Made by a program: the position numbers and the translations under genes. Shown in pieces: positions 3,797-40,058 of a DNA stretch of 64,000 nucleotides. The first letter of the stretch is position 1. Each line of letters opens with the position of its first letter. Below the pieces are notes generated by a model that searched no databases, had not been told where the DNA came from, and saw only the letters and a list, made by a program, of their open reading frames with translations. Source of the stretch: an uncultured Lentisphaeraceae bacterium (GTDB taxonomy: Bacteria > Verrucomicrobiota > Kiritimatiellia > RFP12 > UBA1067); the NCBI GenBank assembly GCA_964386385.1, contig CAYLRN010000001.1:172706-236705 (forward strand). The letters are read 5' to 3'.

Positions 3797-6700
3797 TCAG
3801 CGGAGGATCAGCAGCGTTCCGACGGCGGTGACGACGGAGATGCGGCCGTTCTCGAAGACGAGCGCGGAGTTCGGCGCAGCGCCAGAGACGGAACACGCAA
3901 GGTCCGCCGCGTCTGGCTCGTCGCCGGAGTACGCGAAGAGCGGGAATTTGGGCGGCAGCTTCACCGGACGGTCTGCCATCTGCACGACCGCGCCCTTCTC
4001 GGACTTGAACTTCGCAAGCGGGACGGGAGCGGACTGGCTGAAGCTCGCGCGCAGGACGCCGCCGCTCTGCAGCCACAGTTCGTCCAGCGCCTCCGGCGTC
4101 GCAGCCACCATGTCGAAGACGCCGCCGGCCGCGACGCCGAGCGTTCCGCGCACGGAACCGGCCACCGCCAGGCGCTGCCCGGCGGCCAGCGCGAAGGGCC
4201 GGTTCGTCGTCGTCGGCAGCACGAGGCTCGCGCCCGCCGCCACAGTGACGTTCGTCGCGGCGAGGCCGCACGCGCCCGAATCGCTCGCATGGGGGAACTG
4301 CGAGGGCGTCAGGATGCCGTACTTCGCAACCCAGGCGTCGGTCAGAGCCTTTACGGCCGCGTCGTCGATGAAGGAATCGTAGAGGCGCACCGCGGCGATC
4401 TCCCCCTTGTAGTTGAAGTCGCAGTTGCCGCTGCCGACAAGAACGCGCATTGCCTCGCGCGGCGTTCCGCCGGATCCGGCCGCCAAGAGGCGCATATGCG
4501 TGAAAACGCCGTCCACGACGATGCGCATGAGGCCGGTGTCAGTGTCGAAGGAGCAGACGGCGCAGTGAGGCTGGCCGTCGGCGAGGTCCCAGACGCGGCT
4601 GACAGTGGACTGGTCGCCGCGCGTAGACACGTTCTTTCCGCCGTAGCCGGCCATGACGCGGTTGCCCTCGCCCCAGAGACCCAGTCCCCAGTCCGCCCGG
4701 TTGCTGGTGGGAAGTTCCGCGCCGACCATAACTGACGACGCGAAGAAGTTGCGGTTCATGGTCACGGAATCAGGCATGTTTCCGTTCGTCGACGTGCGGA
4801 ATACGACCGCAGCCGTCCAGGCGACCTTGCCGGAGGCTGGCGAATCGCCGGCGGGGATGCCGAGGGAGGTGTTGTTTCCGTTGAAATAGACGGAGTTGTG
4901 TCCGTTGATCGCGCCCTTGCGCAGAACGGGTCCCTTCCAGGTGGAGGCGTAGGACGTGGCCGACAGGTCGCTTGTTCCCGTGATGCGCGTGACGTTCGCC
5001 TTGTTCGCCGTGCGCGTTCCATCCGTCGAAAGCCATTCCGTCACCTCCGCACCGTCGGCGACGTCGACGATCGAATCGGCGTCCCACGCGGCGGCGCCGT
5101 CGTCCGGAATTGCCGCGGGGACTTTCTCCCCCATCGGCGGAACGTCGCCCTGCGCCGAATCGTCATCCAGCTCTCCAACCGCGTAGACGCTCGCAGGCGC
5201 GCCGTACTTCCCGGCGAGTTCCACGCCGACGGCGGCCTTTTCGCTCCATGTCAGAGTCCTGCCGGGATAGAAGCGGATCTCGGCCAGCGCGCCCGTGAAC
5301 GCGAACTTGTACGGGGCGTCGGCGTCGGCAATGTTCTGGACGCCGAAGTAGATGTCCGCCGCGTTGCGCGGGCTGCGCGTCGTCTCGTCGAGGTCGACGG
5401 CCCTCTCGACGGTCTCGCCGTCGACGGAGAGCGTGAGCGTCCCGTCGCCGGCCATGGCGTAGATGGCAACGTGCGGCCGGCCGTCGGCGTAGCTGCGAGC
5501 CTTCGTGTAGACGCTGTAGTCCTTGTTGAGCTTGGCGACGCCGAAGCCGGCGCCGACATGTCCGTTCGCGCCGAAGACAAGCCCCCAGTCGTTCACGCAG
5601 CCCGGCTGTTCGCGTCCGAGAATGCCGGTCTCCATATACCACGAGTTGTCCCAGCCCAGGCCGGGCGTCGCAGTCTTGAAGACGACTGCCAGCGTCCAGT
5701 TGGTCTGCCCTGCGAGCGGATTTTCCTCCGCCACGACCTTGAGCGCGGAGTGGTCGAACACGACGCCCGGCCGGCCGTTGAACTCGTCGAGAGAGGCCTT
5801 GGGAACTGTCGTCGGATTCGACGAAAACGTCGGAACCACGGCAGTGCGCGAGGCAGTGGAGTCCGGCCATGCGACGACGTCGTCCCCGTCGGCAAGAGCC
5901 GCGACGGCGTCCTCCGCGCGCCAGGCTACGCATCCGGCGGCAGTCGCGGAAGAGGAGGAGGACATTGGCGCGCCCAGTATCTTGACCGTCCCCTCGTCGA
6001 CGGCGAGTTCGCCCGTGAACGCCGAGGCGTCCCCGAGGACGAGCGTGCCGGCCCCCTTCTTCGTGAGGACGCCGCATCCCTTGAGCGGGGCGCGCATGGC
6101 GAATCGGCGGTCCCGCGTGTCGACTGTCGCAGAGGCTCCGGAAGGGACGATCGTGTCGAGTTCGCTGAACGAGTCGGCCGTAGCCGCGAGCGTTCCGCCG
6201 CGCAGTTCGACGCGATACCAGGAGTCGGTCGTCGCGCCCGAGTTCCACCGCCCTTCAGTGGCCGAGAATCCGCGCGAACCGATTTCGAAGAGGCCGCCGG
6301 AGAGCGTGAACGTGCAGTAGCTGTTCGTGACGGGAATCTGGCGGTCGGCCCCGAACGTCGTCGCTCCGCCCAGCGCGACGCGCGGGACGCGCACGGCGCC
6401 GCCCGACTGGCGGTATGCGGCGGAGGGGGAGTTCACGACCGTTCCGTTGTCGCGCCTTGAGAACGCGAGGATCAGTCCGTCGTCGCCCGGCTGGCTGGAA
6501 GAGGTTTCGTCGACGGCAAGCGTTCCGCCCTTCACCGTGAAGTCGTGGGAGACGAGCTGGTGGCCGCCGCGGTCGCCCATCCAGAGCGTCCCCAGATTCG
6601 CCGTGCCGCCGTCCAGGACGAACTTCGGGTTGGCGTACCAGGTAGAAGAGCCGTTGCCCATGTAGAACGTCGTAGCGTCGAAGCGTCCGCCCGTCAGTTC

Positions 6701-7552
6701 GTAGAGCGAGTCGTACTTGCTGAAGCCGACCTGCGCCAGGACCGCCTTGACGTGTCCGCCGGACTGGCGGAACTCGCCGGAGTCGACGACGAAGACGCCG
6801 TTTGTGAAGACCGCGCCGTCGCCAAAGACCACCTTCGGCGCGCCCGGCTGCGTGAGAAGCAGATAGCTGCCTCCGCCACCCATGTTGACGACGACGCCGG
6901 GGAAGACGTCCTTCCAGTCCGCCTTGTCGGTGAACGTCAGTTCGAGCCGGGCGCTTCCGCTCCAGCGAAAGTCCTGCGCCCAGACGCCAGGTTTCGCCAG
7001 GCGCGCGACATTGTGTCCGCCGGACGCGAAGCGGTAGCCGAGCGTCCCCGCATAGGCCGGCGGCGCATTGTGGCAGGCCAGCACGGCGTTGGAGACTACG
7101 AGTTCGGAATTGCCGCCGATGGCGGCGTTGAAAAAGACCTTTGCCAGTCCGAAATCCCATGTCTGGTCCGCGGCCGTCGCCAGGCGGACGCTGAACGTGA
7201 GGTTGGAATCCGCCCCTGCGGCATGGCGGGCCGTCAGGCCGTCCGCGCCCAGGGCCAGCGTCGTCGTCGCGCCGGCCGCCGCGTTCGTGCCGACGACGAC
7301 GGCGCCGTTGGGGACGTTCGTGAGGACGAGGCCGCCTAACGCGAGGCTGGCGGAATTCGTCAGGGCAGCCATTCCCGGCCGCGCCGCGAAGTCGACCCAC
7401 GCGACGTCGTCCTCCCCCGGCAGGACACCGCCCGCCCAGTTCGCCGCGACGGCCATGTCCGCCGATTCCGCGCCGGAGAACCTTACGACCTCGCCCCGCG
7501 CCATCGCGAGAGCAAGCCCCATTGCGACTGCACAATACGCCGCCTTGACCAT
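3797..7552 (-). CDS. Giant secreted protein of about 1252 aa. It has multiple LamG/concanavalin-A-like lectin domains and an autotransporter-associated beta-strand (PATR) repeat.
   Basis: Start ATG at 7552 is preceded by AAGGAGG. Signal peptide is MVKAAYCAVAMGLALAMA. GTLVLGDASAFTGELAVDEGTVKILG matches the PATR repeat. LamG-like signatures include TLTLSVDGETVERAV and GEIAAVRLYDSFIDDAAV. The ORF-track start at 7945 is an upstream read-through. Confidence 0.75.
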   Translation of the reverse strand: MVKAAYCAVAMGLALAMARGEVVRFSGAESADMAVAANWAGGVLPGEDDVAWVDFAARPGMAALTNSASLALGGLVLTNVPNGAVVVGTNAAAGATTTLALGADGLTARHAAGADSNLTFSVRLATAADQTWDFGLAKVFFNAAIGGNSELVVSNAVLACHNAPPAYAGTLGYRFASGGHNVARLAKPGVWAQDFRWSGSARLELTFTDKADWKDVFPGVVVNMGGGGSYLLLTQPGAPKVVFGDGAVFTNGVFVVDSGEFRQSGGHVKAVLAQVGFSKYDSLYELTGGRFDATTFYMGNGSSTWYANPKFVLDGGTANLGTLWMGDRGGHQLVSHDFTVKGGTLAVDETSSSQPGDDGLILAFSRRDNGTVVNSPSAAYRQSGGAVRVPRVALGGATTFGADRQIPVTNSYCTFTLSGGLFEIGSRGFSATEGRWNSGATTDSWYRVELRGGTLAATADSFSELDTIVPSGASATVDTRDRRFAMRAPLKGCGVLTKKGAGTLVLGDASAFTGELAVDEGTVKILGAPMSSSSSATAAGCVAWRAEDAVAALADGDDVVAWPDSTASRTAVVPTFSSNPTTVPKASLDEFNGRPGVVFDHSALKVVAEENPLAGQTNWTLAVVFKTATPGLGWDNSWYMETGILGREQPGCVNDWGLVFGANGHVGAGFGVAKLNKDYSVYTKARSYADGRPHVAIYAMAGDGTLTLSVDGETVERAVDLDETTRSPRNAADIYFGVQNIADADAPYKFAFTGALAEIRFYPGRTLTWSEKAAVGVELAGKYGAPASVYAVGELDDDSAQGDVPPMGEKVPAAIPDDGAAAWDADSIVDVADGAEVTEWLSTDGTRTANKANVTRITGTSDLSATSYASTWKGPVLRKGAINGHNSVYFNGNNTSLGIPAGDSPASGKVAWTAAVVFRTSTNGNMPDSVTMNRNFFASSVMVGAELPTSNRADWGLGLWGEGNRVMAGYGGKNVSTRGDQSTVSRVWDLADGQPHCAVCSFDTDTGLMRIVVDGVFTHMRLLAAGSGGTPREAMRVLVGSGNCDFNYKGEIAAVRLYDSFIDDAAVKALTDAWVAKYGILTPSQFPHASDSGACGLAATNVTVAAGASLVLPTTTNRPFALAAGQRLAVAGSVRGTLGVAAGGVFDMVAATPEALDELWLQSGGVLRASFSQSAPVPLAKFKSEKGAVVQMADRPVKLPPKFPLFAYSGDEPDAADLACSVSGAAPNSALVFENGRISVVTAVGTLLILR

Positions 7553-7625
7553 TTCAAGCCTCCTTGCCAGAGAATGCCACCCGCCGCGCTTGGCGGAAAC
7601 TGCAGAGTCCGAATGCATATGAAGC

Positions 7626-7653
7626 ATTATATCCGTTTTTTTTTTCTCGTCAA
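7626..7653 (-). promoter_or_regulatory. Sigma70-like promoter TTGACG-16 nt-TATAAT for the giant LamG gene. The spacer consists mostly of a homopolymeric A10 (T10 on the plus strand) tract.
   Basis: Minus strand reads cgcaaTTGACGagaaaaaaaaaacggaTATAATgc. The promoter lies between the activase stop (7678) and the LamG gene start (7552). Confidence 0.5.
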
Positions 7654-7677
7654 TTGCGTTCGCCATAAATGGGCGAT

Positions 7678-8526
7678 TTATGGGAGTCGGACGGCGACTT
7701 TCTTCGGCGGCATGACGTCGGGGAGACCGAGGGCCAGGTACTTCGCCCGCGCGTAGTCGTTGTACTCCAGCTCCACGCGAGCGTCCTTTGCGATGCCCAT
7801 CCCGTCGAGGTCGCGATGGCGCGCGGCAAGGTCTGCGCCGTCCGTCAGATTGGGAACGACGAGCAGGCGGACTTCCATTTTCGCCTTCGCCGCGACGAGC
7901 CGGGCGAGATTGCGCAGAATGAGCTCGTTTGATACGCCTGTGCATCGGCGATGGAGATCAGCGCCGTGCGCCTTGTAGTCGGGAAGCCACATGTCCGTCA
8001 CTGGAAGCATCGCCTCGATTGCGGCTGGCGGCGCGTGAAGCGACGTGTCCAGGCAGGTCCGCAATCCCGCCGCGCGGAAGCGCGCGAAGAGCTCCGCCGC
8101 CCATTCCCAGAAGAAGAGCGGTTCGCCGCCGGAGAGAGTGACGCCGCCGCCCGTCCGCTCGTAGAACGGCCTGTCTTCAAGCGCCAGCTCGACGATGCGC
8201 TCCATTGTCATCGGCTTCCCGTAGAACTTCAGCGCACCGGTCGGACACGTCGCCTCGTCGTTCGTGCAGACCTTGTGTCGAACGCACTTGTGCCGGAAGC
8301 GCGCCAACTGCGGCTTCGGGTCGATCGACTCCGGGTTGTGGCACCACAGGCATTTCAGCGGACACCCCTTGACGAAGAACGTCGTCCTCATCCCCGGGCC
8401 GTCCCATATTGCCATCCGCTTCACGTCGAGAAGCAGCGGCGTACGCAGCGGACGGCCGGCAGCGAACGCCGGCGCCAGAGCACATGACGCAACGCCTGCC
8501 AGGAATCCCTTGCGAGTCGTCTTCAT
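7678..8526 (-). CDS. Glycyl-radical-enzyme activating protein (radical SAM, PflA-like), 283 aa. It has an N-terminal Tat/Sec-like hydrophobic extension.
   Basis: CPLKCLWCHNPESI (CX3CX2C), WDGPGMRTTFFVKGC, and a ferredoxin-like Cys cluster CVRHKVCTNDEATC. Start ATG at 8526 overlaps the upstream GRE stop (ATGA). The N-terminus reads MKTTRKGFLAGVASCALAPAFAAG. Confidence 0.8.
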   Translation of the reverse strand: MKTTRKGFLAGVASCALAPAFAAGRPLRTPLLLDVKRMAIWDGPGMRTTFFVKGCPLKCLWCHNPESIDPKPQLARFRHKCVRHKVCTNDEATCPTGALKFYGKPMTMERIVELALEDRPFYERTGGGVTLSGGEPLFFWEWAAELFARFRAAGLRTCLDTSLHAPPAAIEAMLPVTDMWLPDYKAHGADLHRRCTGVSNELILRNLARLVAAKAKMEVRLLVVPNLTDGADLAARHRDLDGMGIAKDARVELEYNDYARAKYLALGLPDVMPPKKVAVRLP

Positions 8527-11393
8527 TGCGCGATTCCCTCCGCGCGCCGGATGTAGGCCTCCTGCTCCTTTCGCGGCATGTCGTTCCAGCGGACGTTCCA
8601 GCCGCACACGCGCACCTGCAGGTTCTCGTATTTTTCGGGCCGCCGCTGGGCGTCGCGCAGCGTCTCCACGTCCACGACGTTGAAATGGATCGCGCATCCG
8701 CCGTTCGCGAAATACGTCTGCACCAGCGCCTTCATCGCGTCAAGCCCCTTATCGCCTCCCACGGCGTACGGGAGAAGCATGACGTCGAGCGGGAAGTCGC
8801 CCGGCAGGTCGCGGGCGTCGAGGTGGGCGACGGATAGCAGAAGCGCCGTAACGCCCTCCGTGTCGGCGCCCATCGTGGGGGAGACGTTCTTGCTCATCTC
8901 CTCGCCGGCGCGGCGTCCGTCCGGCGTCGCGCCCGTGGCGCGGCCAAGGTCGATGAACTGCTTCGCGCAGTGTCCGCTCGCCTCGAACGCGCCGTTGCGC
9001 GAATTCGGGACGCCGTTCAGGCATTTAGCGTAGGCCTTGACGATTTCGTCGGCGAGATGGTTCGCCTCCGCGTCGTTGTTTCCCCACTTGCGCTTCGAGC
9101 GCTGCATCCTGAGGCGGAGGTCTTCACGCCCTTCCCAGTTCTTCGCCATCAGCGCGCCGAGTTCGGCAAGCGACATCTCACGGCGCTCGTAGACGATTTC
9201 CTCCACGGCGAGCAGCGCGTCGACCGCGGTGCCGAGGCCGGTCTGGAGGACGGAGGAGAAGTTGCCGCGCCGAGTGCCGTCGACGAATGCGTCCTTCCCG
9301 GTCATGACGCTGTATTCCGTGGCAAGCGAGAAGAGAAGGGACGGGTTGACTTCGGCAAGAGTCCTCTCCCACTCGAACGCGAGATTGCGGCTCTCGACGG
9401 TCGTCTCCGCAAGCCGCGCCAGGTAGGCCCGCCTGAACGCCGCGAAATCGGCGGCGGCGAAAGTCCCGTCCTTCGCGCGATCGAGCAGTTCCTCGACGAC
9501 CTTCAGCAGATTGACGTGGGAGATGCCGGTGCCGTTGTAGCCGTCCCTGAGGCCGAACTCGTAGCAGCCGGCGACGACCATCGCGCGGCAGTCCTCGTCA
9601 GTGCAGTCGCGTATCTTGCCCTTCAGCACGCGCGCCATCGGCTCTTCGCCGCAGAAGACGAGCGAACGGTGTCGGCGCGCCATGTCGAGGGCCTTACGCC
9701 AGACCCAGTCGGGGGTGGAGGCCGCCATCTTGAGCTGGACTTTCGGCGTCGGCAGGGCGAGTTCGTCGTGCACTTCAAGGAGAATGCGCGAGACCTCGTT
9801 GTACGCGCTCGTGCCGTCGGCGTTCGTGCCGCCGAAATAGACGGGCTGCCCCCAGTAGTTGTCGATCGACCCCCACTGCCACCAGAAGTGGCGGAGCTGT
9901 TCGCGGAACTCCGCCTCGGTCGTCCGCCCCGCCGCGATGTCTGCGCGGTAGTAGGGCGTAAGGAGGCGGTCGAGGTTGCCGAGGGAGCGGACCTGGAAGC
10001 TGTCGAAGTTCTCGCTCATCACCCAGTCGAGATAGATGAAGAGCAGGACGTCATAGGCCGTCCGCGGCGCGCCCGCGCGCAGGCGGCGCAGGGAATCGCG
10101 CTCCTTCTCGAGGCGGGAGACGCGCCGCGCATGAACCGCGCCGGGCGGGTCCGCCGCCTCGCTCCGCAGGGCAGCCAGACGACGCTCCGACTGGACGACG
10201 AGGCGGTCCAGATGGCGAAGGACGGCGTCTGCGGCCATGAGACGGCTTTCGTAGTAGGCGTTTCCGTCCTTCCAGTTCGCCAGCAGACGTTCCCGGAGGC
10301 CGGGGAAGCCGAGCGGCAGAATAGCGTCCCAGTCGGGGACGGAATGGTCGTAGTCCTTCCACATGTTCCAGCGTCCGGCCTTGCGCCCGGCATGGATCTT
10401 CGCCGGCACGTCCGGACACGTCCGGGCGTCCACCTCCCCGCTGCGCTGTCCCATGATGGAATTGAGAGGATGCCCGAACCTGTGCTTCGTCCAAAGCGCG
10501 TAGGCGGGAAACCAGTCAAGGGGCGAGACGTCTATCGCCGCGCGGTCGCAGCAGAACGCGAAGAGCTTAGCCTTTACGACGCTCCACGGCATTCTGCCCT
10601 TGCTCTCCTCCGCAAGCCTTGAGAGCGCCCCGCGCATCTCCTCGCGCTCAAGGCCGGTGGCGGGGTCTGCGACAGGGGTCCGCCACTTGAAGCGAAGGTA
10701 GTCCGCCTCGTTCGCGAACGGCGCGATCGTCCGTTCCTCGTACGGGGTCAGGACGACGTTGCGCAGACGTATCGCCACCCGTCCCTGCGGATAGGGCTGC
10801 GTCTGGAAGCCGATGCGTCCCGCGCGCGGAACTGTCACGAAGCAGCGGCTCACCTCCACTCCGTCCCACGAACACGCGACATCTCCCTCGACGCTGCGGA
10901 CGGCGAGGCGATGCCAGGCGCCGGGCGTCCGTCGCGCCGCTACGGCGCGGGGGATGCGATGGTAGCCGACTCCCGACATCGGACCCGACTGCGGCGTGGC
11001 GCCGACCATCAGCCCCGGCCATCCCCACAGGTCGCCGATGTCCGTCGTCTTCAACTGGAATTCAAGACCCGACGCCTGGTCGCCGTCGCCGACAAGAACG
11101 GCCAGCCCTCCGTCGCCGAACGAATCGTCGGCGTACTGTATTTCGGCCGTGAGCTTGAAATCGCGCCAGCGTTCCCTCGTCGTCAGGACGAGCGGCCTGG
11201 CGCCGTTCATGGTCAGGACGCCGTCCGCCAGGCTGAACGTCTCCGCGACGTCGGCGGCGGACTTCGCCATCGGGCAGTCGAAGTCCGCCAGCGTCCGCCC
11301 GGCGAACAGATCCACCGGCGGAAGCGCGGTCGGCGCGGCAAGTCCCGTCCATGCGGCAAGGACCCCGGCGGCGATGGCCATTTCAAGTTTCAT
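8523..11393 (-). CDS. Fusion protein of 956 aa: signal peptide + DUF1080 (3-keto-disaccharide-hydrolase-like/LamG-like) module + glycyl-radical-enzyme (PFL-family) fold.
   Basis: RBS AAGGAGG precedes the ATG at 11393. N-terminus is MKLEMAIAAGVLAAWTGLAAP. DUF1080 signature ...DFKLTAEIQYADD...GRIGFQTQPYPQGRVAIRLRNVVL. C-terminus QVRVCGWNVRWNDMPRKEQEAYIRRAEGIAQ parallels the PFL glycine-radical motif RVSGYAVRFNSLTKEQQ. AGCYEFG is the candidate thiyl-Cys loop. Confidence 0.75.
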   Translation of the reverse strand: MKLEMAIAAGVLAAWTGLAAPTALPPVDLFAGRTLADFDCPMAKSAADVAETFSLADGVLTMNGARPLVLTTRERWRDFKLTAEIQYADDSFGDGGLAVLVGDGDQASGLEFQLKTTDIGDLWGWPGLMVGATPQSGPMSGVGYHRIPRAVAARRTPGAWHRLAVRSVEGDVACSWDGVEVSRCFVTVPRAGRIGFQTQPYPQGRVAIRLRNVVLTPYEERTIAPFANEADYLRFKWRTPVADPATGLEREEMRGALSRLAEESKGRMPWSVVKAKLFAFCCDRAAIDVSPLDWFPAYALWTKHRFGHPLNSIMGQRSGEVDARTCPDVPAKIHAGRKAGRWNMWKDYDHSVPDWDAILPLGFPGLRERLLANWKDGNAYYESRLMAADAVLRHLDRLVVQSERRLAALRSEAADPPGAVHARRVSRLEKERDSLRRLRAGAPRTAYDVLLFIYLDWVMSENFDSFQVRSLGNLDRLLTPYYRADIAAGRTTEAEFREQLRHFWWQWGSIDNYWGQPVYFGGTNADGTSAYNEVSRILLEVHDELALPTPKVQLKMAASTPDWVWRKALDMARRHRSLVFCGEEPMARVLKGKIRDCTDEDCRAMVVAGCYEFGLRDGYNGTGISHVNLLKVVEELLDRAKDGTFAAADFAAFRRAYLARLAETTVESRNLAFEWERTLAEVNPSLLFSLATEYSVMTGKDAFVDGTRRGNFSSVLQTGLGTAVDALLAVEEIVYERREMSLAELGALMAKNWEGREDLRLRMQRSKRKWGNNDAEANHLADEIVKAYAKCLNGVPNSRNGAFEASGHCAKQFIDLGRATGATPDGRRAGEEMSKNVSPTMGADTEGVTALLLSVAHLDARDLPGDFPLDVMLLPYAVGGDKGLDAMKALVQTYFANGGCAIHFNVVDVETLRDAQRRPEKYENLQVRVCGWNVRWNDMPRKEQEAYIRRAEGIAQ

Positions 11394-34229: not shown

Positions 34230-36443
34230 TCAAACCGCCGGAGCCTTGATCCATTCCTTCATCTCGGCCGACAGCGGGGAGACCGACTTGACGACCGCCT
34301 TGGAAACCTTGCCTTCGGCGTCGGGAAGCTCGATCTCGTCGCCGGCCTTTCTGCCGACCATGTTCTGCGCAAGCCGCGTATTGCAGGAGATGACGCCGAG
34401 GTCGAGATAGTTGTCCCATTCGCCGAGGACGGTGTACGTCCTCTCCTCGCCGGAAGCGGTCACGATGACAACCGTCGTGCCGGGGCAGACGGTCTCGGAG
34501 ACGACGTCCGCGAAGTCGACGGCCTTGACCTCGTTGAGCTGCTTCTGGAGTTCGTCCTGCTTCTGGTGGAGGACGCGCTCCTCGTCCTTCGCGTACTGGT
34601 ATTCCGCGTTTTCGCTCAAGTCGCCGTAGCTCTTCGCGAACTGGATGCGCTTCGTGTTCTCCGGGATGTCCTTCGTGACGAGCTTTTCGTATTCCGCCTG
34701 GCGTTCGGCGTAGGAGCGGAGCGACGTGATGCGTTCGACCGTCTTCGCCGCGGTCTTCTTGATCTGGCGGGCCGCGAGTTCGGGGACGATCTTCGTCATG
34801 CGCACGACGATCATGTGGTGCGTGGACGGGTCCCACGCGATCGACGCCTGGAAGCGCTCGAAGAAGAGGGCCTGGTCGGCCGGCTTCAGGCGCTTGAACA
34901 TGTCCTCAAGCCACTTCTGGTCCGCGAAAAGGCGGCGGATCGTGTTCTGCATCCGCAGCGTCTCGCCCGTCTGCCTGCCCTCGCCAAGCGCGATGGCGTG
35001 GGTCAGGATGACGACGAGCGGCGGCAGGGACTCCCATTCCACGAAGTCGTTGTACCTGCCGATTACGTACGTCACGAGGGGGGCGGGGGCGTGCGGGGAC
35101 TTCAGGAGGTCGGCGGCGGCGTGCTCGCAGACGGAATCCTTCTTGAACGTGTCCAGGGTGGCGCAGAGCAGGGAATACGTCATCACCGCCAGATTGTCGA
35201 AGAGCTTCTGCTTGCGCCCGGCGCGCTCCTCCTCCGTGGAACCCATGGAGAGGAACGTCACGAAGCGCACCATGTCGCGGGCGGGCAGAACGCGCGCCGC
35301 GTCGAGATAGCGGTCTTCCGTCCACATGTAGTTGCGCGCCTTGGCGATGGTCTCCGGGTCGAAGCCAAGCCCGTCAAGGCAGAACGCGATGCGCAGATAG
35401 AGCGAATCGTCCACGCCGCGGACGCCCTTGAGCGCATAGCGGAGACGCTCGGCGATGCAGGCCTTCTGCTCGTCGCCGAGCTTAGCGAAATGCGCCTTGG
35501 CGGACTGGAGCTCGGCGACGGACGCGAAGATGGACTTGGGGTCGCACTCCTTCGCGAACGCCGAGAACCAGGTGTCGCCGTACGTCTCCTCCGAGGCCTT
35601 GAGCACGATCGGCTCGGCCCGGCGCGTGGGAATCGCGACGCACTTGTTCGTGCGCAGCTCGGCGCGCGCCTTCTCCCAGAAGGATTTCCACTTCGCCGCC
35701 TTGTCGCCCCGGTTCCTGCCGTTGTCCGGAAGGAGGCGGGCGAAGCCGTACTGGTTCACCAGCTCCTCGAGGCGCGAGACGGGCATGTTGCCGAAGCTCT
35801 CCAGCATGGCGACGACGAATTCGCCCGGCTTCTCCTTCATCTGCGCCTTGATGCGGTCGGGGTCGCCCTTCAGCATCAGGAGTATGTGGCCGTCGGGCGC
35901 GATGGAAAGCGTCTCGCAGGCGGCGTCGTACGTGAACTGGTGTCCGGGGCGGGTGGGGAAGTCCACGCTCACGCGACGGTAGAAGTCGTCGATCCTCCTG
36001 ACCTGGCCAAGCCCCCAGGCGCGGCTGAGGACGTAGGCCCCCGGGCGGAAGGAGACAAGACGCTCCAGGCGCTTGACAGGCTCGTTGAGGTCGGGCCGGA
36101 CGTCGAAGCCCACCGCGTCAATGAACGAAAGAAGCGTCCTGTCCTTCGTCGTGCGCTTCAGGGCGTCCCTGACCCCGGCGCCGCTCAGGCAGGAGTTAAG
36201 CAGCCTGCCGCAGCCGGACACGGCCTTGAACGCGCCGTCGAAGTCGCCGGCCTCCCCCATCGCCGCAAGCAGCGCGGCGGCGTTCGCCTCCCCCTTGCTG
36301 GGAGGCAGACTGGAAATCAACTTGACGACCTCATCCACCGGACACGGCGTGACCGAAAGCTTCGTGCCAATCTCGGCTTCAATCTCCTCAACGGACTTCT
36401 TATCCATAACTGCCTTTTTCTGGTTGAAAAACGTAAGGGGCAT
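34230..36443 (-). CDS. Large protein of about 737 aa with a C-terminal GreA/GreB-type transcript-cleavage-factor domain and a long uncharacterised N-terminal region. The start is ambiguous between 36443 and 36407.
   Basis: C-terminus ...FAKSYGDLSENAEYQYAKDEERVLHQKQDELQKQLNEVKAVDF...GTTVVIVTASGEERTYTVLGEWD... is GreA-like. The ORF-track start at 36632 is probably read-through. Confidence 0.65.
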   Translation of the reverse strand: MPLTFFNQKKAVMDKKSVEEIEAEIGTKLSVTPCPVDEVVKLISSLPPSKGEANAAALLAAMGEAGDFDGAFKAVSGCGRLLNSCLSGAGVRDALKRTTKDRTLLSFIDAVGFDVRPDLNEPVKRLERLVSFRPGAYVLSRAWGLGQVRRIDDFYRRVSVDFPTRPGHQFTYDAACETLSIAPDGHILLMLKGDPDRIKAQMKEKPGEFVVAMLESFGNMPVSRLEELVNQYGFARLLPDNGRNRGDKAAKWKSFWEKARAELRTNKCVAIPTRRAEPIVLKASEETYGDTWFSAFAKECDPKSIFASVAELQSAKAHFAKLGDEQKACIAERLRYALKGVRGVDDSLYLRIAFCLDGLGFDPETIAKARNYMWTEDRYLDAARVLPARDMVRFVTFLSMGSTEEERAGRKQKLFDNLAVMTYSLLCATLDTFKKDSVCEHAAADLLKSPHAPAPLVTYVIGRYNDFVEWESLPPLVVILTHAIALGEGRQTGETLRMQNTIRRLFADQKWLEDMFKRLKPADQALFFERFQASIAWDPSTHHMIVVRMTKIVPELAARQIKKTAAKTVERITSLRSYAERQAEYEKLVTKDIPENTKRIQFAKSYGDLSENAEYQYAKDEERVLHQKQDELQKQLNEVKAVDFADVVSETVCPGTTVVIVTASGEERTYTVLGEWDNYLDLGVISCNTRLAQNMVGRKAGDEIELPDAEGKVSKAVVKSVSPLSAEMKEWIKAPAV

Positions 36444-36615
36444 TTTATCAAATCCACTCCGCTTGTGCAACCTTGCAACGTCTTGGAGGCTTCCCGTTTT
36501 TTCACGGCCGGCAAGTCCATCTCGCGGCAACTCCCCGTTTCCGGCTTTCAGGGAGAGACAACCGCCCGCGGATTCAATGAAGCCCGTGGGTGATGGCGGC
36601 GCGGAAAATGAAGAG

Positions 36616-36660
36616 GGGCAGAACCACCGCATTTATATGAATGCGGTGGTTCTGCCGTTC
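36616..36660. terminator. Perfect 16-17 bp inverted repeat GGCAGAACCACCGCATT-tatatg-AATGCGGTGGTTCTGCC. It is a candidate terminator for the convergent/upstream LamG gene or a regulatory hairpin for the GreA-like gene.
   Basis: The palindrome is read directly from the sequence. It lies about 115 nt downstream of the LamG gene stop (36773) and about 170 nt upstream of the GreA-like start. TATGAATGCGG is directly repeated nearby. Confidence 0.35.
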
Positions 36661-36772: not shown

Positions 36773-39700
36773 TCACCTGAACTGGATGAGCGTTCCGAGA
36801 TGGAGCCAGCGCACCTCGTCGAGCACCGAGAAGCCGACGTCGCCGACGACCGAGAGGTCGTGCACGGCGTTCCCGTTCGCGACGCCATCGCGAAGGCCGT
36901 CCGAACCGGCGTCGAGCGGCCACCAGCCGAGCAGCCCAGACTCCGTGCCTTCCGGAGGACGTCCGCAGTGGCGGGCGACCTCGCCGGGCGTCAGCGCCCG
37001 GTCCCAGAGCGTGACCTGCGAGAGCGTTCCCTTGACCGAGAAGCCGCCTACGCAGTGTCCGCCGATGCGTAGGCTGTACCAGTCCGTGGCGGGATTGACG
37101 AAATTCTCCGCGCCGTCGGCGGAATCCACCAGCCGCCCGTCAAGGTAGAGCCGCGCCTCTGACCGGCCCAGGTCGTGCGTGAAGGCCAGCTGGTGCCAGC
37201 GGCCGGAATTGCGGACGGCGGAGGCGTCGAAGCCCAGCTCAAGCATGTTGTTGTCGAAGTCGCGCGTCTGGACACTGATCTTGAAGAACGAACTGTCCGT
37301 CCTGCTTGCGTTCGCGAAGCAGCAGAACCCCGGCGTCCTGTTGCCCAAGGCGCCCTTCGAGACGATTGCGCCGTAAAGTTCGTCGTCCAGCCCGCGCCCG
37401 CCGACGTCCAGGTCGCGAAACCACACGGTGAACGAGAAGTTCGTGAGCGACGGCCCCCACCCGGCGTTCAGGCAGGACGGCCCGTACGATCCCGTGAGAT
37501 GCGGAACGCCGGCCGAGCCGCCGGGGCCTGCAAGGAACGCCGCGCCCTCGGCGGAGGGATAAAACGCGCCGACGACGAGGTCGTACATCCCCGCCACGCC
37601 GTCGGCCTTGCGTTCGCATGGGATGAACTTGCGCGCGAGCGTCCCGTCCTGCCAGATCGCCGCGGCGTGGAGGCGTCCCCATCCAGACGCTTTCGGCCCA
37701 GCCTTCAGCAGGCTTATCTGCGCCGTGGACGTCCCCGTCATGGGATAGTCCAGCGCGGCAGACTTCGTTCCGTCCACGTAGAACGCGCCGCCCCTCGCGT
37801 CGAGCGTCAGGCGGGCCCGCGTGCCTGAAACGGCCACCACGGGCGACGACGGGGCGTTCCACCCCAGTGCGTCCTCAAGGCCGGCGTCCATGCAGCGGCT
37901 CACCCAGCGCATGTTGTTCAGCGACGTGAAGGCCTCGAAGAAAAACGCCCCGGCGGGAACGTCCGCCTCCGCGCAGTCGCGCGCGCCGACGACATGGCGG
38001 TTCAGGGTGGCGCTGACGTTGTACGGCGTGAAGTCGACCGTCGCCGTCGTCCCGGGCGTCGCGTACACGCACGTCGCTATGGACTGCGCGCCCGTGGCGA
38101 CGACGTAGTCGAGGGCCGCGTATCCGTCGGGAAGTTCCGAAACGTCGAGGTACGCGCCGCGCTCGAACGCATCCGAACCGGCGGCGTTCACGTGGAACGC
38201 GCCCGTGACGCGGTCGTACAGGCCCGCGGCGCCGTCCGTGATGCGCTCGAACGGCGCGAGGTCGCGCACAAGGACGTCTCCCTCGTAGATCTTCCAGCCG
38301 TAGACGCGAAGCCCGTAGTACGTGAACGGCGTGAGCAGTCCGTTCGCCGCGCACGACCCGCAGAGGGCAAGGGAGTTCACGGAGTGCGTAGTCGTCTTCA
38401 CGGCGGCATGCGTCGACTGGACGCCGAACGAGACCGCTCCGGAGGCGGCGTCCACCTCGAACGCGCCGCGGGACGTGCGGTTCTGGACGTCCCAGCTGTA
38501 GATGTCCGCCCCCGACGCATACGATCTGTCCATCCAGAGGAACAGCTGGTTGTCCTGAAAGTCGTAGCCGCCGAAGTTAACAGTCATGCAAACGACGCCG
38601 TCCGGCTCCGCGCAGCCGAAGAATGACGCGCCTTTGACGCCGTTGACAGGCTTGCGGTTTGCGGGGCTGCCGACGAACTGGATGTCGCCCGCAATGCGCG
38701 TGGAGGGATTGGGGCAGTAGCCCAGGTCGAAGCACTGCGTGCCGGTGGACGCGACGTACTCGACCGGGCGCAGCGCGCCGGCGGGCGTGACGGTGAACTC
38801 CTTCGTGACGGCCCATCCCGCGCGCTCGCCAAGGCCGGTCACGGTCACGGTGCCGGCACCAGGCGCGGCGTTGTCCGCATACGACAGTTCGTAGTCCGTC
38901 CCCTCCTCCAGCGGCAGTTCCGTGACGGGGTCGACTACGCGGGGCTTCGGACGGCACGGGTTCGCGCCGTCATACACCTGGTCCGGCACGGGGCGGACGA
39001 CGAACGAAGCGTTCTCTCCTAGGAAGCGGGCGCGGTCAAGCGTCGCGTTGCGGTCTCTCTCGTATGGCGTGAGGGCGCGGTCGTAGACCCGGATGGCGTG
39101 GACGCGGACGTCGGCGCGCGGGTTAGAGAAGAACGCGAACTTCGCCCCCCAGTCCTCGGAGTACGAATCCATCGCGAAGTCTGAGAGGGCGATGGCCTCG
39201 CCGTCGCAGAAGAAGGCGCTTGTAGCGGTGTTCGTGCCGTAGGTGAGGGAAAAGACGTGGACCTCCGCCGTCGTCATGTCCTCCGGCTGCCAGTGCCATA
39301 TCCGCCTCTTGGACGCGCTTTCGGGGAAGAAGGCGTAGAAGCCGTTGTCCTTGTCCCTGCGATAGCCGAAGCTTCCGCGCGGAGTGTCGGCAACCGTCTG
39401 CAGGTTGTAGTAGTTGTCGGAGAACTTCCAGGCGACGTTCTGCATGACGACCTCGACCGTGAACGCCCCGGCGTCGGGTCCTGTCGACAGACCCGCCAGG
39501 GCCGCCATCTCCGTCGTGTCCACGCCGGCCGTCTTGTCCGGCTTCGCGAGCGAGAGAAAGGCGTTCGCCTCGGCGGCGACAAGACTCGTGGCGGGAATGG
39601 CGAGGTCGTTGCCGTTCCCTGAAAGGTCTTTCCAGACCGTCGGCGAATCGGAGTGCGAGCGGACGCCGTCCACAATCGCGTTGTCTATGCCGTCCCAGTG

Positions 39701-39847
39701 CGCGACGAGGCCGTTCGTGACGTAGGCGTCCGACCCGAACTCGCCGGCGGAAGCCGCCGTCCCCAACGCAAGCGCCGCCATGAACGCCGCCACCGGACGC
39801 GCCATGCGCCCACTTCCCATCGACCTCGACCGATCTATCGATTTCAT
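36773..39847 (-). CDS. Secreted LamG/concanavalin-A-like lectin-domain protein of 1024 aa. It is a paralogue-class of the 3797-7552 protein.
   Basis: Signal peptide ...MARPVAAFMAALALGTAASAG. LSGNGNDLAI and C-terminal ARLYLDGRLVDSADGA...GTLSQVTLWDRALTPGEVARH are LamG_3-type signatures. AAAGGAGA RBS precedes the ATG at 39847. Confidence 0.75.
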   Translation of the reverse strand: MKSIDRSRSMGSGRMARPVAAFMAALALGTAASAGEFGSDAYVTNGLVAHWDGIDNAIVDGVRSHSDSPTVWKDLSGNGNDLAIPATSLVAAEANAFLSLAKPDKTAGVDTTEMAALAGLSTGPDAGAFTVEVVMQNVAWKFSDNYYNLQTVADTPRGSFGYRRDKDNGFYAFFPESASKRRIWHWQPEDMTTAEVHVFSLTYGTNTATSAFFCDGEAIALSDFAMDSYSEDWGAKFAFFSNPRADVRVHAIRVYDRALTPYERDRNATLDRARFLGENASFVVRPVPDQVYDGANPCRPKPRVVDPVTELPLEEGTDYELSYADNAAPGAGTVTVTGLGERAGWAVTKEFTVTPAGALRPVEYVASTGTQCFDLGYCPNPSTRIAGDIQFVGSPANRKPVNGVKGASFFGCAEPDGVVCMTVNFGGYDFQDNQLFLWMDRSYASGADIYSWDVQNRTSRGAFEVDAASGAVSFGVQSTHAAVKTTTHSVNSLALCGSCAANGLLTPFTYYGLRVYGWKIYEGDVLVRDLAPFERITDGAAGLYDRVTGAFHVNAAGSDAFERGAYLDVSELPDGYAALDYVVATGAQSIATCVYATPGTTATVDFTPYNVSATLNRHVVGARDCAEADVPAGAFFFEAFTSLNNMRWVSRCMDAGLEDALGWNAPSSPVVAVSGTRARLTLDARGGAFYVDGTKSAALDYPMTGTSTAQISLLKAGPKASGWGRLHAAAIWQDGTLARKFIPCERKADGVAGMYDLVVGAFYPSAEGAAFLAGPGGSAGVPHLTGSYGPSCLNAGWGPSLTNFSFTVWFRDLDVGGRGLDDELYGAIVSKGALGNRTPGFCCFANASRTDSSFFKISVQTRDFDNNMLELGFDASAVRNSGRWHQLAFTHDLGRSEARLYLDGRLVDSADGAENFVNPATDWYSLRIGGHCVGGFSVKGTLSQVTLWDRALTPGEVARHCGRPPEGTESGLLGWWPLDAGSDGLRDGVANGNAVHDLSVVGDVGFSVLDEVRWLHLGTLIQFR

Positions 39848-39932: not shown

Positions 39933-39958
39933 ATTATATGCTTTTTTTTTCCTGTCAA
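39933..39958 (-). promoter_or_regulatory. Sigma70-like promoter TTGACA-14 nt-TATAAT for the LamG gene. The spacer is dominated by an A9 (T9 on the plus strand) homopolymer.
   Basis: Minus strand reads cgccaTTGACAggaaaaaaaaagcaTATAATtcacc. It has the same architecture as the 7626-7653 promoter. Confidence 0.5.
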
Positions 39959-40039
39959 TGGCGCTGGCCGCTTTTATTTCGTCCGCCGGCGAAATAGGCA
40001 GCGGATTTCCGCGCCCATGTTGACGCGGGGAAAACGGCG

Positions 40040-40058
40040 TGGTAGAATGGTCTGCATG
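40040..40058 (+). promoter_or_regulatory. Extended -10 TGgTAGAAT located 7 nt upstream of the ATG at 40056 (leaderless-type start).
   Basis: Sequence reads cgTGgTAGAATggtctgcATGaatcgg. No RBS is present. Confidence 0.4.

Follow-up and report, generated by a model that had tools for sequence, protein, structure and literature searches.

In Neisseria meningitidis, a homopolymer lying between the -10 and -35 elements drives phase variation of porA, fetA and opc, as described in PMC2791445 and its references 10, 11, 14 and 15, and the same paper cites van Ham (1993) for hifA and hifB of Haemophilus influenzae, where the number of TA repeats sets the distance from -35 to -10. The vlp promoters of Mycoplasma hyorhinis carry a poly-A tract that likewise drives phase variation (Citti and Wise 1995, as cited in PMC10502178). 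In Bordetella pertussis, the poly-C tracts of the fim2, fim3 and fimX promoters are polymorphic among isolates, and a difference of one base changes the fimX transcript 3.8-fold (PMC1891110). The locus presented here, from a window of 64,000 nucleotides (by which we mean the whole stretch of DNA that was analysed), invites comparison with all of these, as ten consecutive A residues form most of the spacer of a strong candidate promoter. Homopolymers in promoter spacers are a textbook mechanism of phase variation, but to our knowledge nearly all documented cases come from pathogens adapted to a host (such as Neisseria, Haemophilus, Bordetella, Mycoplasma and Helicobacter), and full-text literature searches combining Kiritimatiellae or Kiritimatiellota with phase variation found no paper. 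We hold, with moderate confidence, that the A10 spacer ahead of the gene we call gene 1 would serve as a slipped-strand contingency locus, or as a rheostat, that tunes expression of a predicted exported protein.

The promoter lies on the minus strand at 7653-7626 and reads TTGACG-AGAAAAAAAAAACGGA-TATAAT, an 11/12 match to the sigma-70 consensus, which bears out the original prediction of a TTGACG and a TATAAT hexamer held apart by a 16-nt spacer with ten A/T bases. A promoter scan places the -35 hexamer at 7648..7653; the -10 hexamer occupies 7626..7631, and the spacer between them (7632..7647) is composed of AG, A10 and CGGA. The A10 homopolymer itself, which is T10 on the plus strand, runs over 7636..7645, is the longest homopolymer of the window and is the candidate slippage-prone element. 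Across 7000-9000 the scan returned the gene-1 promoter as the sole such site, and shuffled sequences give 0.2 per 2 kb. The core is situated 67-101 nt upstream of the 1251-aa gene on the same strand, and transcription, if it starts about 7 nt past the -10, would yield a 5' UTR of ~67 nt (7553..7619, minus strand) that contains a strong ribosome-binding site, AAGGAGG at 7565-7559, 6 nt ahead of the ATG at 7552.

The predicted 5' UTR also contains a small GC hairpin, CCGCC..GGCGG. Folding of this 5' UTR is no better than that of shuffled sequence (z = 0.68), and an Rfam search with the 5' regions of gene 1 and gene 2 returned nothing credible; a riboswitch or leader RNA was dropped, since shuffled sequence folds as well as the 5' UTRs do and Rfam offers no match. 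We likewise set aside a sigma-54 promoter at TGGCAT-N5-GGCA in the 5' UTR, the GC being out of register by eye and the motif absent in three of the orthologous loci (L001-L003). The 3' half of the 5' UTR (7566-7590, minus strand) reads GGCGGGTGGCATTCTCTG(G/A)CAAGGAGG and is near-invariant in four species, while its 5' half varies; this segment may act in translational control, or form a structure in which the ribosome-binding site is hidden, a fold for which there is no statistical support. In the 65%-identity orthologue (L004, 455-485, with equivalents in L032 and L033), a hairpin of the form GCGCATTCC-CTCGT-GGAATGCGC followed by T6 stands directly past the -10 of gene 1. This strong terminator-like hairpin could be a transcription attenuator in that species, and none comparable is found in the gene-1 5' UTR of the window.

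Upstream of gene 1, a radical-SAM activase gene on the same strand (7678-8697) stops 24 nt before the -35, and a terminator scan of the interval between the two genes found none; read-through from the activase gene could therefore blunt an ON/OFF effect whatever the length of the tract. An inverted repeat, CCATAAAT-CGCCC-ATTTATGG, at 7663-7683 (minus strand) overlaps the activase stop codon, with 10 nt between the repeat and the -35 downstream. As it is absent from L001-L004, it falls outside the conserved promoter; it could act as an operator or as a weak terminator. The activase gene and a glycyl-radical enzyme gene (8523-11393) are positioned in the window between an acyltransferase/PPTase gene and gene 1, and the glycyl-radical enzyme is an unusual combination in its own right, with an N-terminal 3-keto-disaccharide-hydrolase-like domain (PF06439) fused to PFL-like and Gly_radical domains.

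Promoters of this kind stand out against the composition of the window. GC content is ~65%, A/T runs of at least 6 number only six in 64 kb, and two alone reach at least 8: the A10 at 7645-7636 and an A9 at 39942-39950. Counted as overlapping matches, A8 was observed 5 times against 0.36 expected, with 0/100 shuffles reaching five; in the window the tract is longer than composition predicts, as is looked for in repeat-type phase variation. A scan of the window for TTGACA/TATAAT pairs with spacers of 13-19 nt found only four pairs at 10/12 or better, of which the best two, at 11/12 and 12/12, coincide with the poly-A tracts. For pairs of at least 11/12, these 2 observations compare with a simulated mean of 0.05, and 0/200 first-order Markov simulations reach 2. 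The coincidence of poly-A tract and promoter exceeds chance.

We judge it highly improbable that the gene-1 tract has no part in a promoter and is either AT-rich intergenic sequence that matches by coincidence or the T-run of a terminator on the plus strand. The plus strand does read T10, as a terminator tail might, but no GC-rich stem abuts the run, the terminator scan finds nothing there and no plus-strand gene ends at it, and we rejected a plus-strand terminator for want of both stem and gene end. Coincidence would also have to accommodate two promoters of at least 11/12, where chance would supply 0.05, and hexamers that are conserved across species. Two pattern scans looked beyond the window. 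A generic search for TTGACR...A9...TATAAT was discarded as a gauge of prevalence, as it gave at least 100 matches, on AT-rich viral contigs (median GC 33%), and a scan of metagenome contigs with the gene-1 promoter pattern gave a single match, on an unrelated contig of 40% GC.

Gene 1 (3797..7552, minus strand) encodes 1251 aa plus a stop, rather than the 1252 aa initially counted; the protein has an N-terminus resembling a signal peptide, contains a PATR repeat and ends in GTLLILR. It was first described as a giant LamG gene. Pfam finds only PATR, an autotransporter-type beta-strand repeat (with an NCBIfam-type match to TIGR02601), and a Pfam search for LamG at E values up to 5 gave no match, whereas a LamG-like region emerges by profile comparison alone, residues 987-1067 aligning with the LamG region of gene 2 over 80 columns (probability 84%, E 7e-6). 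The LamG label is only weakly justified for gene 1, since only PATR and TIGR02601 were matched; two gene-1 homologues have precomputed PF13385 matches. A sequence-based search for a solved structure of gene 1 found none. The window probably derives from a Kiritimatiellia genome; homologues are named as Kiritimatiellae or Kiritimatiellia MAGs.

The second poly-A promoter of the window belongs to gene 2 (36773..39847, minus strand), which encodes 1024 aa and was characterised by Pfam and tail searches as a Laminin_G_3 protein ending in GTLIQFR. This promoter, at 39933..39958 on the minus strand, reads TTGACA-GGAAAAAAAAAGCA-TATAAT and matches 12/12 hexamer positions, with its -35 at 39958-39953, its A9 tract at 39942-39950 and its -10 at 39938-39933. 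Gene 2 had been presented as a paralogue of gene 1 with the same design and a T9 tract. A poly-A9 does lie between consensus hexamers, but the spacer (GG-A9-GCA) is 14 nt long, not 16, and the genes are not paralogues. BLASTP of gene 1 against gene 2 gives E 0.86, no detectable paralogy, and the resemblance of the products is limited to the 80-column domain-level profile match and a 7-residue C-terminal tail. Their upstream DNA is alike only over a core of 39 nt, at 79% identity, and over a GC hairpin segment of 16 nt in collinear position. With upstream similarity so confined, a mobile element or repeated cassette was rejected, and the two loci therefore have a common design rather than a repeated element.

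Among the window's ORFs of at least 150 aa, only gene 1 and gene 2 finish with G-T-L-[LI]-x-[LF]-R. A broader tail, G-T/x-[LMI]-[LI]-x-[LFVM]-[RK]-COOH, is found in both genes (3797-3820 and 36773-36796) and in all their orthologues, having been checked in L001-L005, L017, L019, L020, L006 and L016, with examples such as AVGTLLILR, HLGTLIQFR, HLGTLIQFK and AGLMILVR. No Pfam or NCBIfam model covers this GTLxxxR tail, which may act as a sorting signal that has yet to be characterised, or form a terminal beta-strand. Signal-peptide-like N-termini in both genes, PATR in gene 1, Laminin_G_3 in gene 2 and the common tail are the indicators of a putative surface or secreted location.

Gene-2 orthologues at 82% and 80% identity retain the design with other spacers. 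One (L016) has GGGGAG-A10-GTA, 19 nt; the other (L006) has GGAGAG-A10-GTA before TACAAT, also 19 nt, and contigs of the same set (L006-L015) range over 19-21 nt. The gene-2 spacers sampled are thus 14, 19 and 19-21 nt, with none at 16-18 nt, and the -35 and -10 of gene 2 may not cooperate at all. A search of genome contigs with the gene-2 family alignment found only orthologues of ~45% identity, in Kiritimatiellia MAGs and lacking the poly-A design, and the genome of the window was not among its matches. These ~45% orthologues carry another conserved upstream block, TTTGTTTTCGCAATCAAC(A/T)TGTGAGAAAACGCAATAG, with the repeated half-site CGCAAT (L017 1375-1440; L018 3775-3840; L019 3800-3865; L021 3830-3895), followed by a T-rich stretch (T4-T7) and GATACT; the block may be a regulator site that takes the place of the poly-A design. 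Directly downstream of gene 2 is a gene (34230-36632, minus strand) for a GreA-family fusion of unusual length, an 800-aa protein with the N- and C-terminal domains of GreA/GreB at its end. The gene order is kept in L016 (from 3505), where the product also has an HTH_GRAD match.

A further promoter, TTGACG-17-TGgTAGAAT at 40020-40048 on the plus strand, with a canonical extended -10, stands back to back with that of gene 2 and 7 nt before an ATG at 40056. That ATG is probably the true leaderless start of an AAA-ATPase_like/PDDEXK_9 gene, the listed ORF of which starts at 40017. This divergent promoter does not include the A9 tract.

Conservation of the gene-1 promoter was followed through orthologues in Logan assemblies, at 81, 81, 78, 65 and 45% identity (L001 to L005). 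The two at 81% read TTGACG-AG-A10-CGGA-TATAAT (L001) and TTGACG-AG-A10-TGGA-TATAAT (L002), the one at 78% (L003) repeats the latter, and the one at 65% (L004) reads TTGACA-GCGAG-A7-TGGC-TATAAT, all four with a spacer of 16 nt; the orthologue at 45% (L005) has TTGACA and TAAACT separated by 18 nt that include no long tract. Among the five tract-carrying gene-1 species (65-100% protein identity, the window included), 21/28 columns of the core are invariant against 17/101 of the remaining intergenic sequence. All five preserve the -35, the A tract and the -10, with TTGAC and the whole of TATAAT unchanged. In L001-L003 (1-2890) gene 1 comes directly after the 1127-aa acyltransferase/PPTase gene, and the core persists despite this different upstream neighbour. 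The spacers of the 40020-40048 promoter and of the L005 promoter are both GC-rich, and a poly-A spacer is therefore not general among promoters of the clade, which appears to use ordinary -35/-10 spacing.

The main rival to slippage is a static A-tract spacer, rigid, narrow-grooved and AT-rich, that strengthens the promoter or forms a binding site for a DNA-binding or nucleoid-associated protein. The gene would then be constitutive or classically regulated, and length variants would be incidental and mildly harmful. We consider this possible but rather doubtful. It would account well for a usual spacer of exactly 16 nt in every one of the five species despite ~20-35% protein divergence, an identity of length that fits direct selection on one fixed, active configuration, and for conservation of the tract that equals that of the hexamers. 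A stable mixed sequence would serve a static spacer just as well, however, and what has been kept across species, unexpectedly, is an uninterrupted, mutable run of 9-10 nt in a window otherwise without any. Moreover, other promoters of the clade have GC-rich spacers, and a gene of the same class but unrelated, gene 2, repeats the design. There the -35, the tract and the -10 all persist even though the spacers (14, 19 and 19-21 nt) lie beyond the usual active range.

Slippage predicts that tract length should differ between natural samples. Heterogeneity across isolates had been proposed as the check on the original prediction, and the outcome is positive in three sister species, in which contigs with identical proteins differ at this position. 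For the species of the window itself, look-ups by exact protein (gene 1, the activase upstream of it and P0001) turned up no second sample. Tract lengths were called on automated short-read metagenome contigs (Logan), in which homopolymer consensus errors are possible; the source runs are SRR33013272, SRR33013276-78, SRR33013291, SRR33036515, SRR33036519, SRR33036521, SRR33036526, SRR33036527, SRR33036530, SRR33036531, SRR33036540, SRR25400506, SRR25404690, SRR17244092, SRR17244097 and SRR17704083.

The largest set is for the gene-2 orthologue, where the matches listed include ten contigs from ten sequencing runs (L006-L015) that encode an identical 1023-aa protein. Their tracts are A10 in eight, A11 in one (L015) and A12 in one (L011), and in L010, itself an A10 contig, a further AG unit adjoins the tract. 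Over 3.5 kb these contigs differ at 3 SNP columns and 4 indel columns, the latter all in the promoter tract, the AG repeat or the two T9 runs of an upstream terminator. For gene 1, one sister species has an identical 1248-aa protein with A10 (L030) or A9 (L031), and another an identical 1236-aa protein with A7 (L033) or A9 (L032), alleles that include spacers of 15 nt and 18 nt. The alignments of the two gene-1 contig sets, 3.9-4.9 kb long and with 7-13 SNP columns, show no internal indel outside the tract. Length polymorphism amid constant flanks, a hallmark of contingency loci, is thus apparent in three sister species. Among the gene-2 orthologue contigs, a single SNP haplotype (C-C-A) is found with tracts of A10, A10, A11 and A12, and length therefore changes fast relative to substitutions, which suggests that such changes are both fast and recurrent. 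The L006-L016 contigs end at near-identical points, ~230-260 nt upstream and ~244 nt downstream of gene 2, and these shared break points suggest variable or repeated flanks.

Could these differences be sequencing or assembly artefacts at homopolymers, the real tract being invariant? We think this quite unlikely. All of the variation does come from automated short-read assemblies, and every homopolymer of at least 9 nt in L006-L015 varies somewhat. Two-base steps (A7 against A9, A10 against A12) and the gain of a whole AG unit are, on the other hand, unlikely as consensus errors, no variation is seen in T6 runs or 5-mers, the coding sequences agree fully over more than 3 kb, and the same alleles recur in independent samples.

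Variability is not peculiar to the promoter. The intrinsic terminator of the sister species, CGTCCACG...CGTGGACG, lies upstream of the gene-2 promoter (about 75-136 in L006-L015, about 60-100 in L016) and is followed by two T9 runs split by CGA, each T run being T9 or T10 by sample. In the ten contigs these runs vary about as often as the promoter tract, in 1/10 and 3/10 respectively; instability is therefore generic to long homopolymers, and the promoter tract is not specially unstable. This also favours the static spacer, in that variability alone does not imply function, as does the status of the variants as minority alleles (1/3, 1/3 and 3/10 contigs among the matches listed).

The anatomy of the tract, its non-randomness, its conservation and its natural length polymorphism are observed, and we infer from the sequence that the promoter is used, that length would affect its transcription, that changes would be reversible and that they may have adaptive value. 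Under the slippage that we favour, the A10 would form the bulk of the spacer of a near-consensus sigma-70-type promoter driving a giant, predicted-exported, PATR/LamG-like protein. Slipped-strand mispairing at replication would add bases to the tract or remove them, and each change would shift the distance and the rotational phase between -35 and -10, and hence promoter strength. Promoters recognised by sigma-70 in E. coli depend on a spacer of 17 +/- 1 nt. The 16-nt spacer given by A10, the usual state in every sampled species, should be active; the 15-nt spacer given by A9 should be weak; and the 17-18 nt given by A11 or A12 should equal or exceed the strength of A10. Expression variants would result, inherited and presumably reversible, that could be ON/OFF or graded. 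Since one-base changes would give 15 nt (weaker) or 17 nt (equal or stronger), a graded rheostat is as likely as an ON/OFF switch. Gene 2, at 14, 19 or 19-21 nt, all of them predicted to be weak, would usually be silent, and slippage could turn it on; alternatively, its -35 and -10 would not cooperate. At the level of sequence, both loci appear to have a repeat tract between -35 and -10.

A wider reading, which we put forward tentatively and think rather unlikely to hold in full, would make the two loci samples of a phase-variable gene set specific to their clade within Kiritimatiellia, with a common cassette, giant exported proteins with the tail GT[LMI][LI]x[LFVM][RK]-COOH, and independent switching. 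The cassette would comprise the -35, the poly-A spacer and the -10, followed by the GC hairpin of the 5' UTR. The result would be combinatorial variation of the cell surface; in the sampled populations gene 1 would be kept ON, and gene 2 would for the most part be OFF. Such a set, if it exists, would give the PVC superphylum its first described contingency-locus system, which would also be the first in a lineage that is non-pathogenic and GC-rich and uses poly-A. More generally, if the tracts do tune transcription, then uncultured GC-rich PVC bacteria would also diversify giant surface proteins by mutation, with a possible bearing on evasion of phages or hosts and on substrate binding in their communities. 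A poly-A tract between TTGAC and TATAAT, combined with the C-terminal tail, would then provide a signature with which to search metagenome-assembled genomes.

How, then, does this locus compare with the known systems? The hifA/hifB promoters resemble it in that repeat number sets the -35/-10 spacing; unlike it, they have a dinucleotide repeat in two overlapping divergent promoters, whereas here a mononucleotide tract serves one promoter each. Like the fim promoters of Bordetella, it has a promoter homopolymer that is polymorphic in natural samples, and the graded effect at fimX corresponds to the rheostat behaviour proposed here. The fim tract, however, spaces the site of an activator (BvgA) from the -10, whereas the present tract abuts a true -35, with no activator site evident. 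porA, opc and fetA share with it an unstable homopolymer in the -10/-35 spacer, which in those genes sets the spacer by its length and gives high, medium or low expression of outer-membrane proteins; theirs are poly-G or poly-C tracts, in a pathogen whose phase-variable genes are well characterised and whose switching rates have been measured, and ours are poly-A tracts in an uncultured organism. With the vlp system, the likeness is to a sense-strand A homopolymer inside the promoter and to several unrelated or divergent genes per genome with the same design. The vlp tracts are longer, about 17 A, and their host is an AT-rich, wall-less pathogen with lipoprotein products, whereas here A7-A12 tracts precede giant PATR/LamG-like proteins in a diderm of 65% GC from the PVC group. 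In the vlp system, tract indels accompany ON/OFF transcription of variable surface proteins, and it is beside this, and beside the measured switching of Neisseria, that the present tracts, known from sequence alone, can now be placed.
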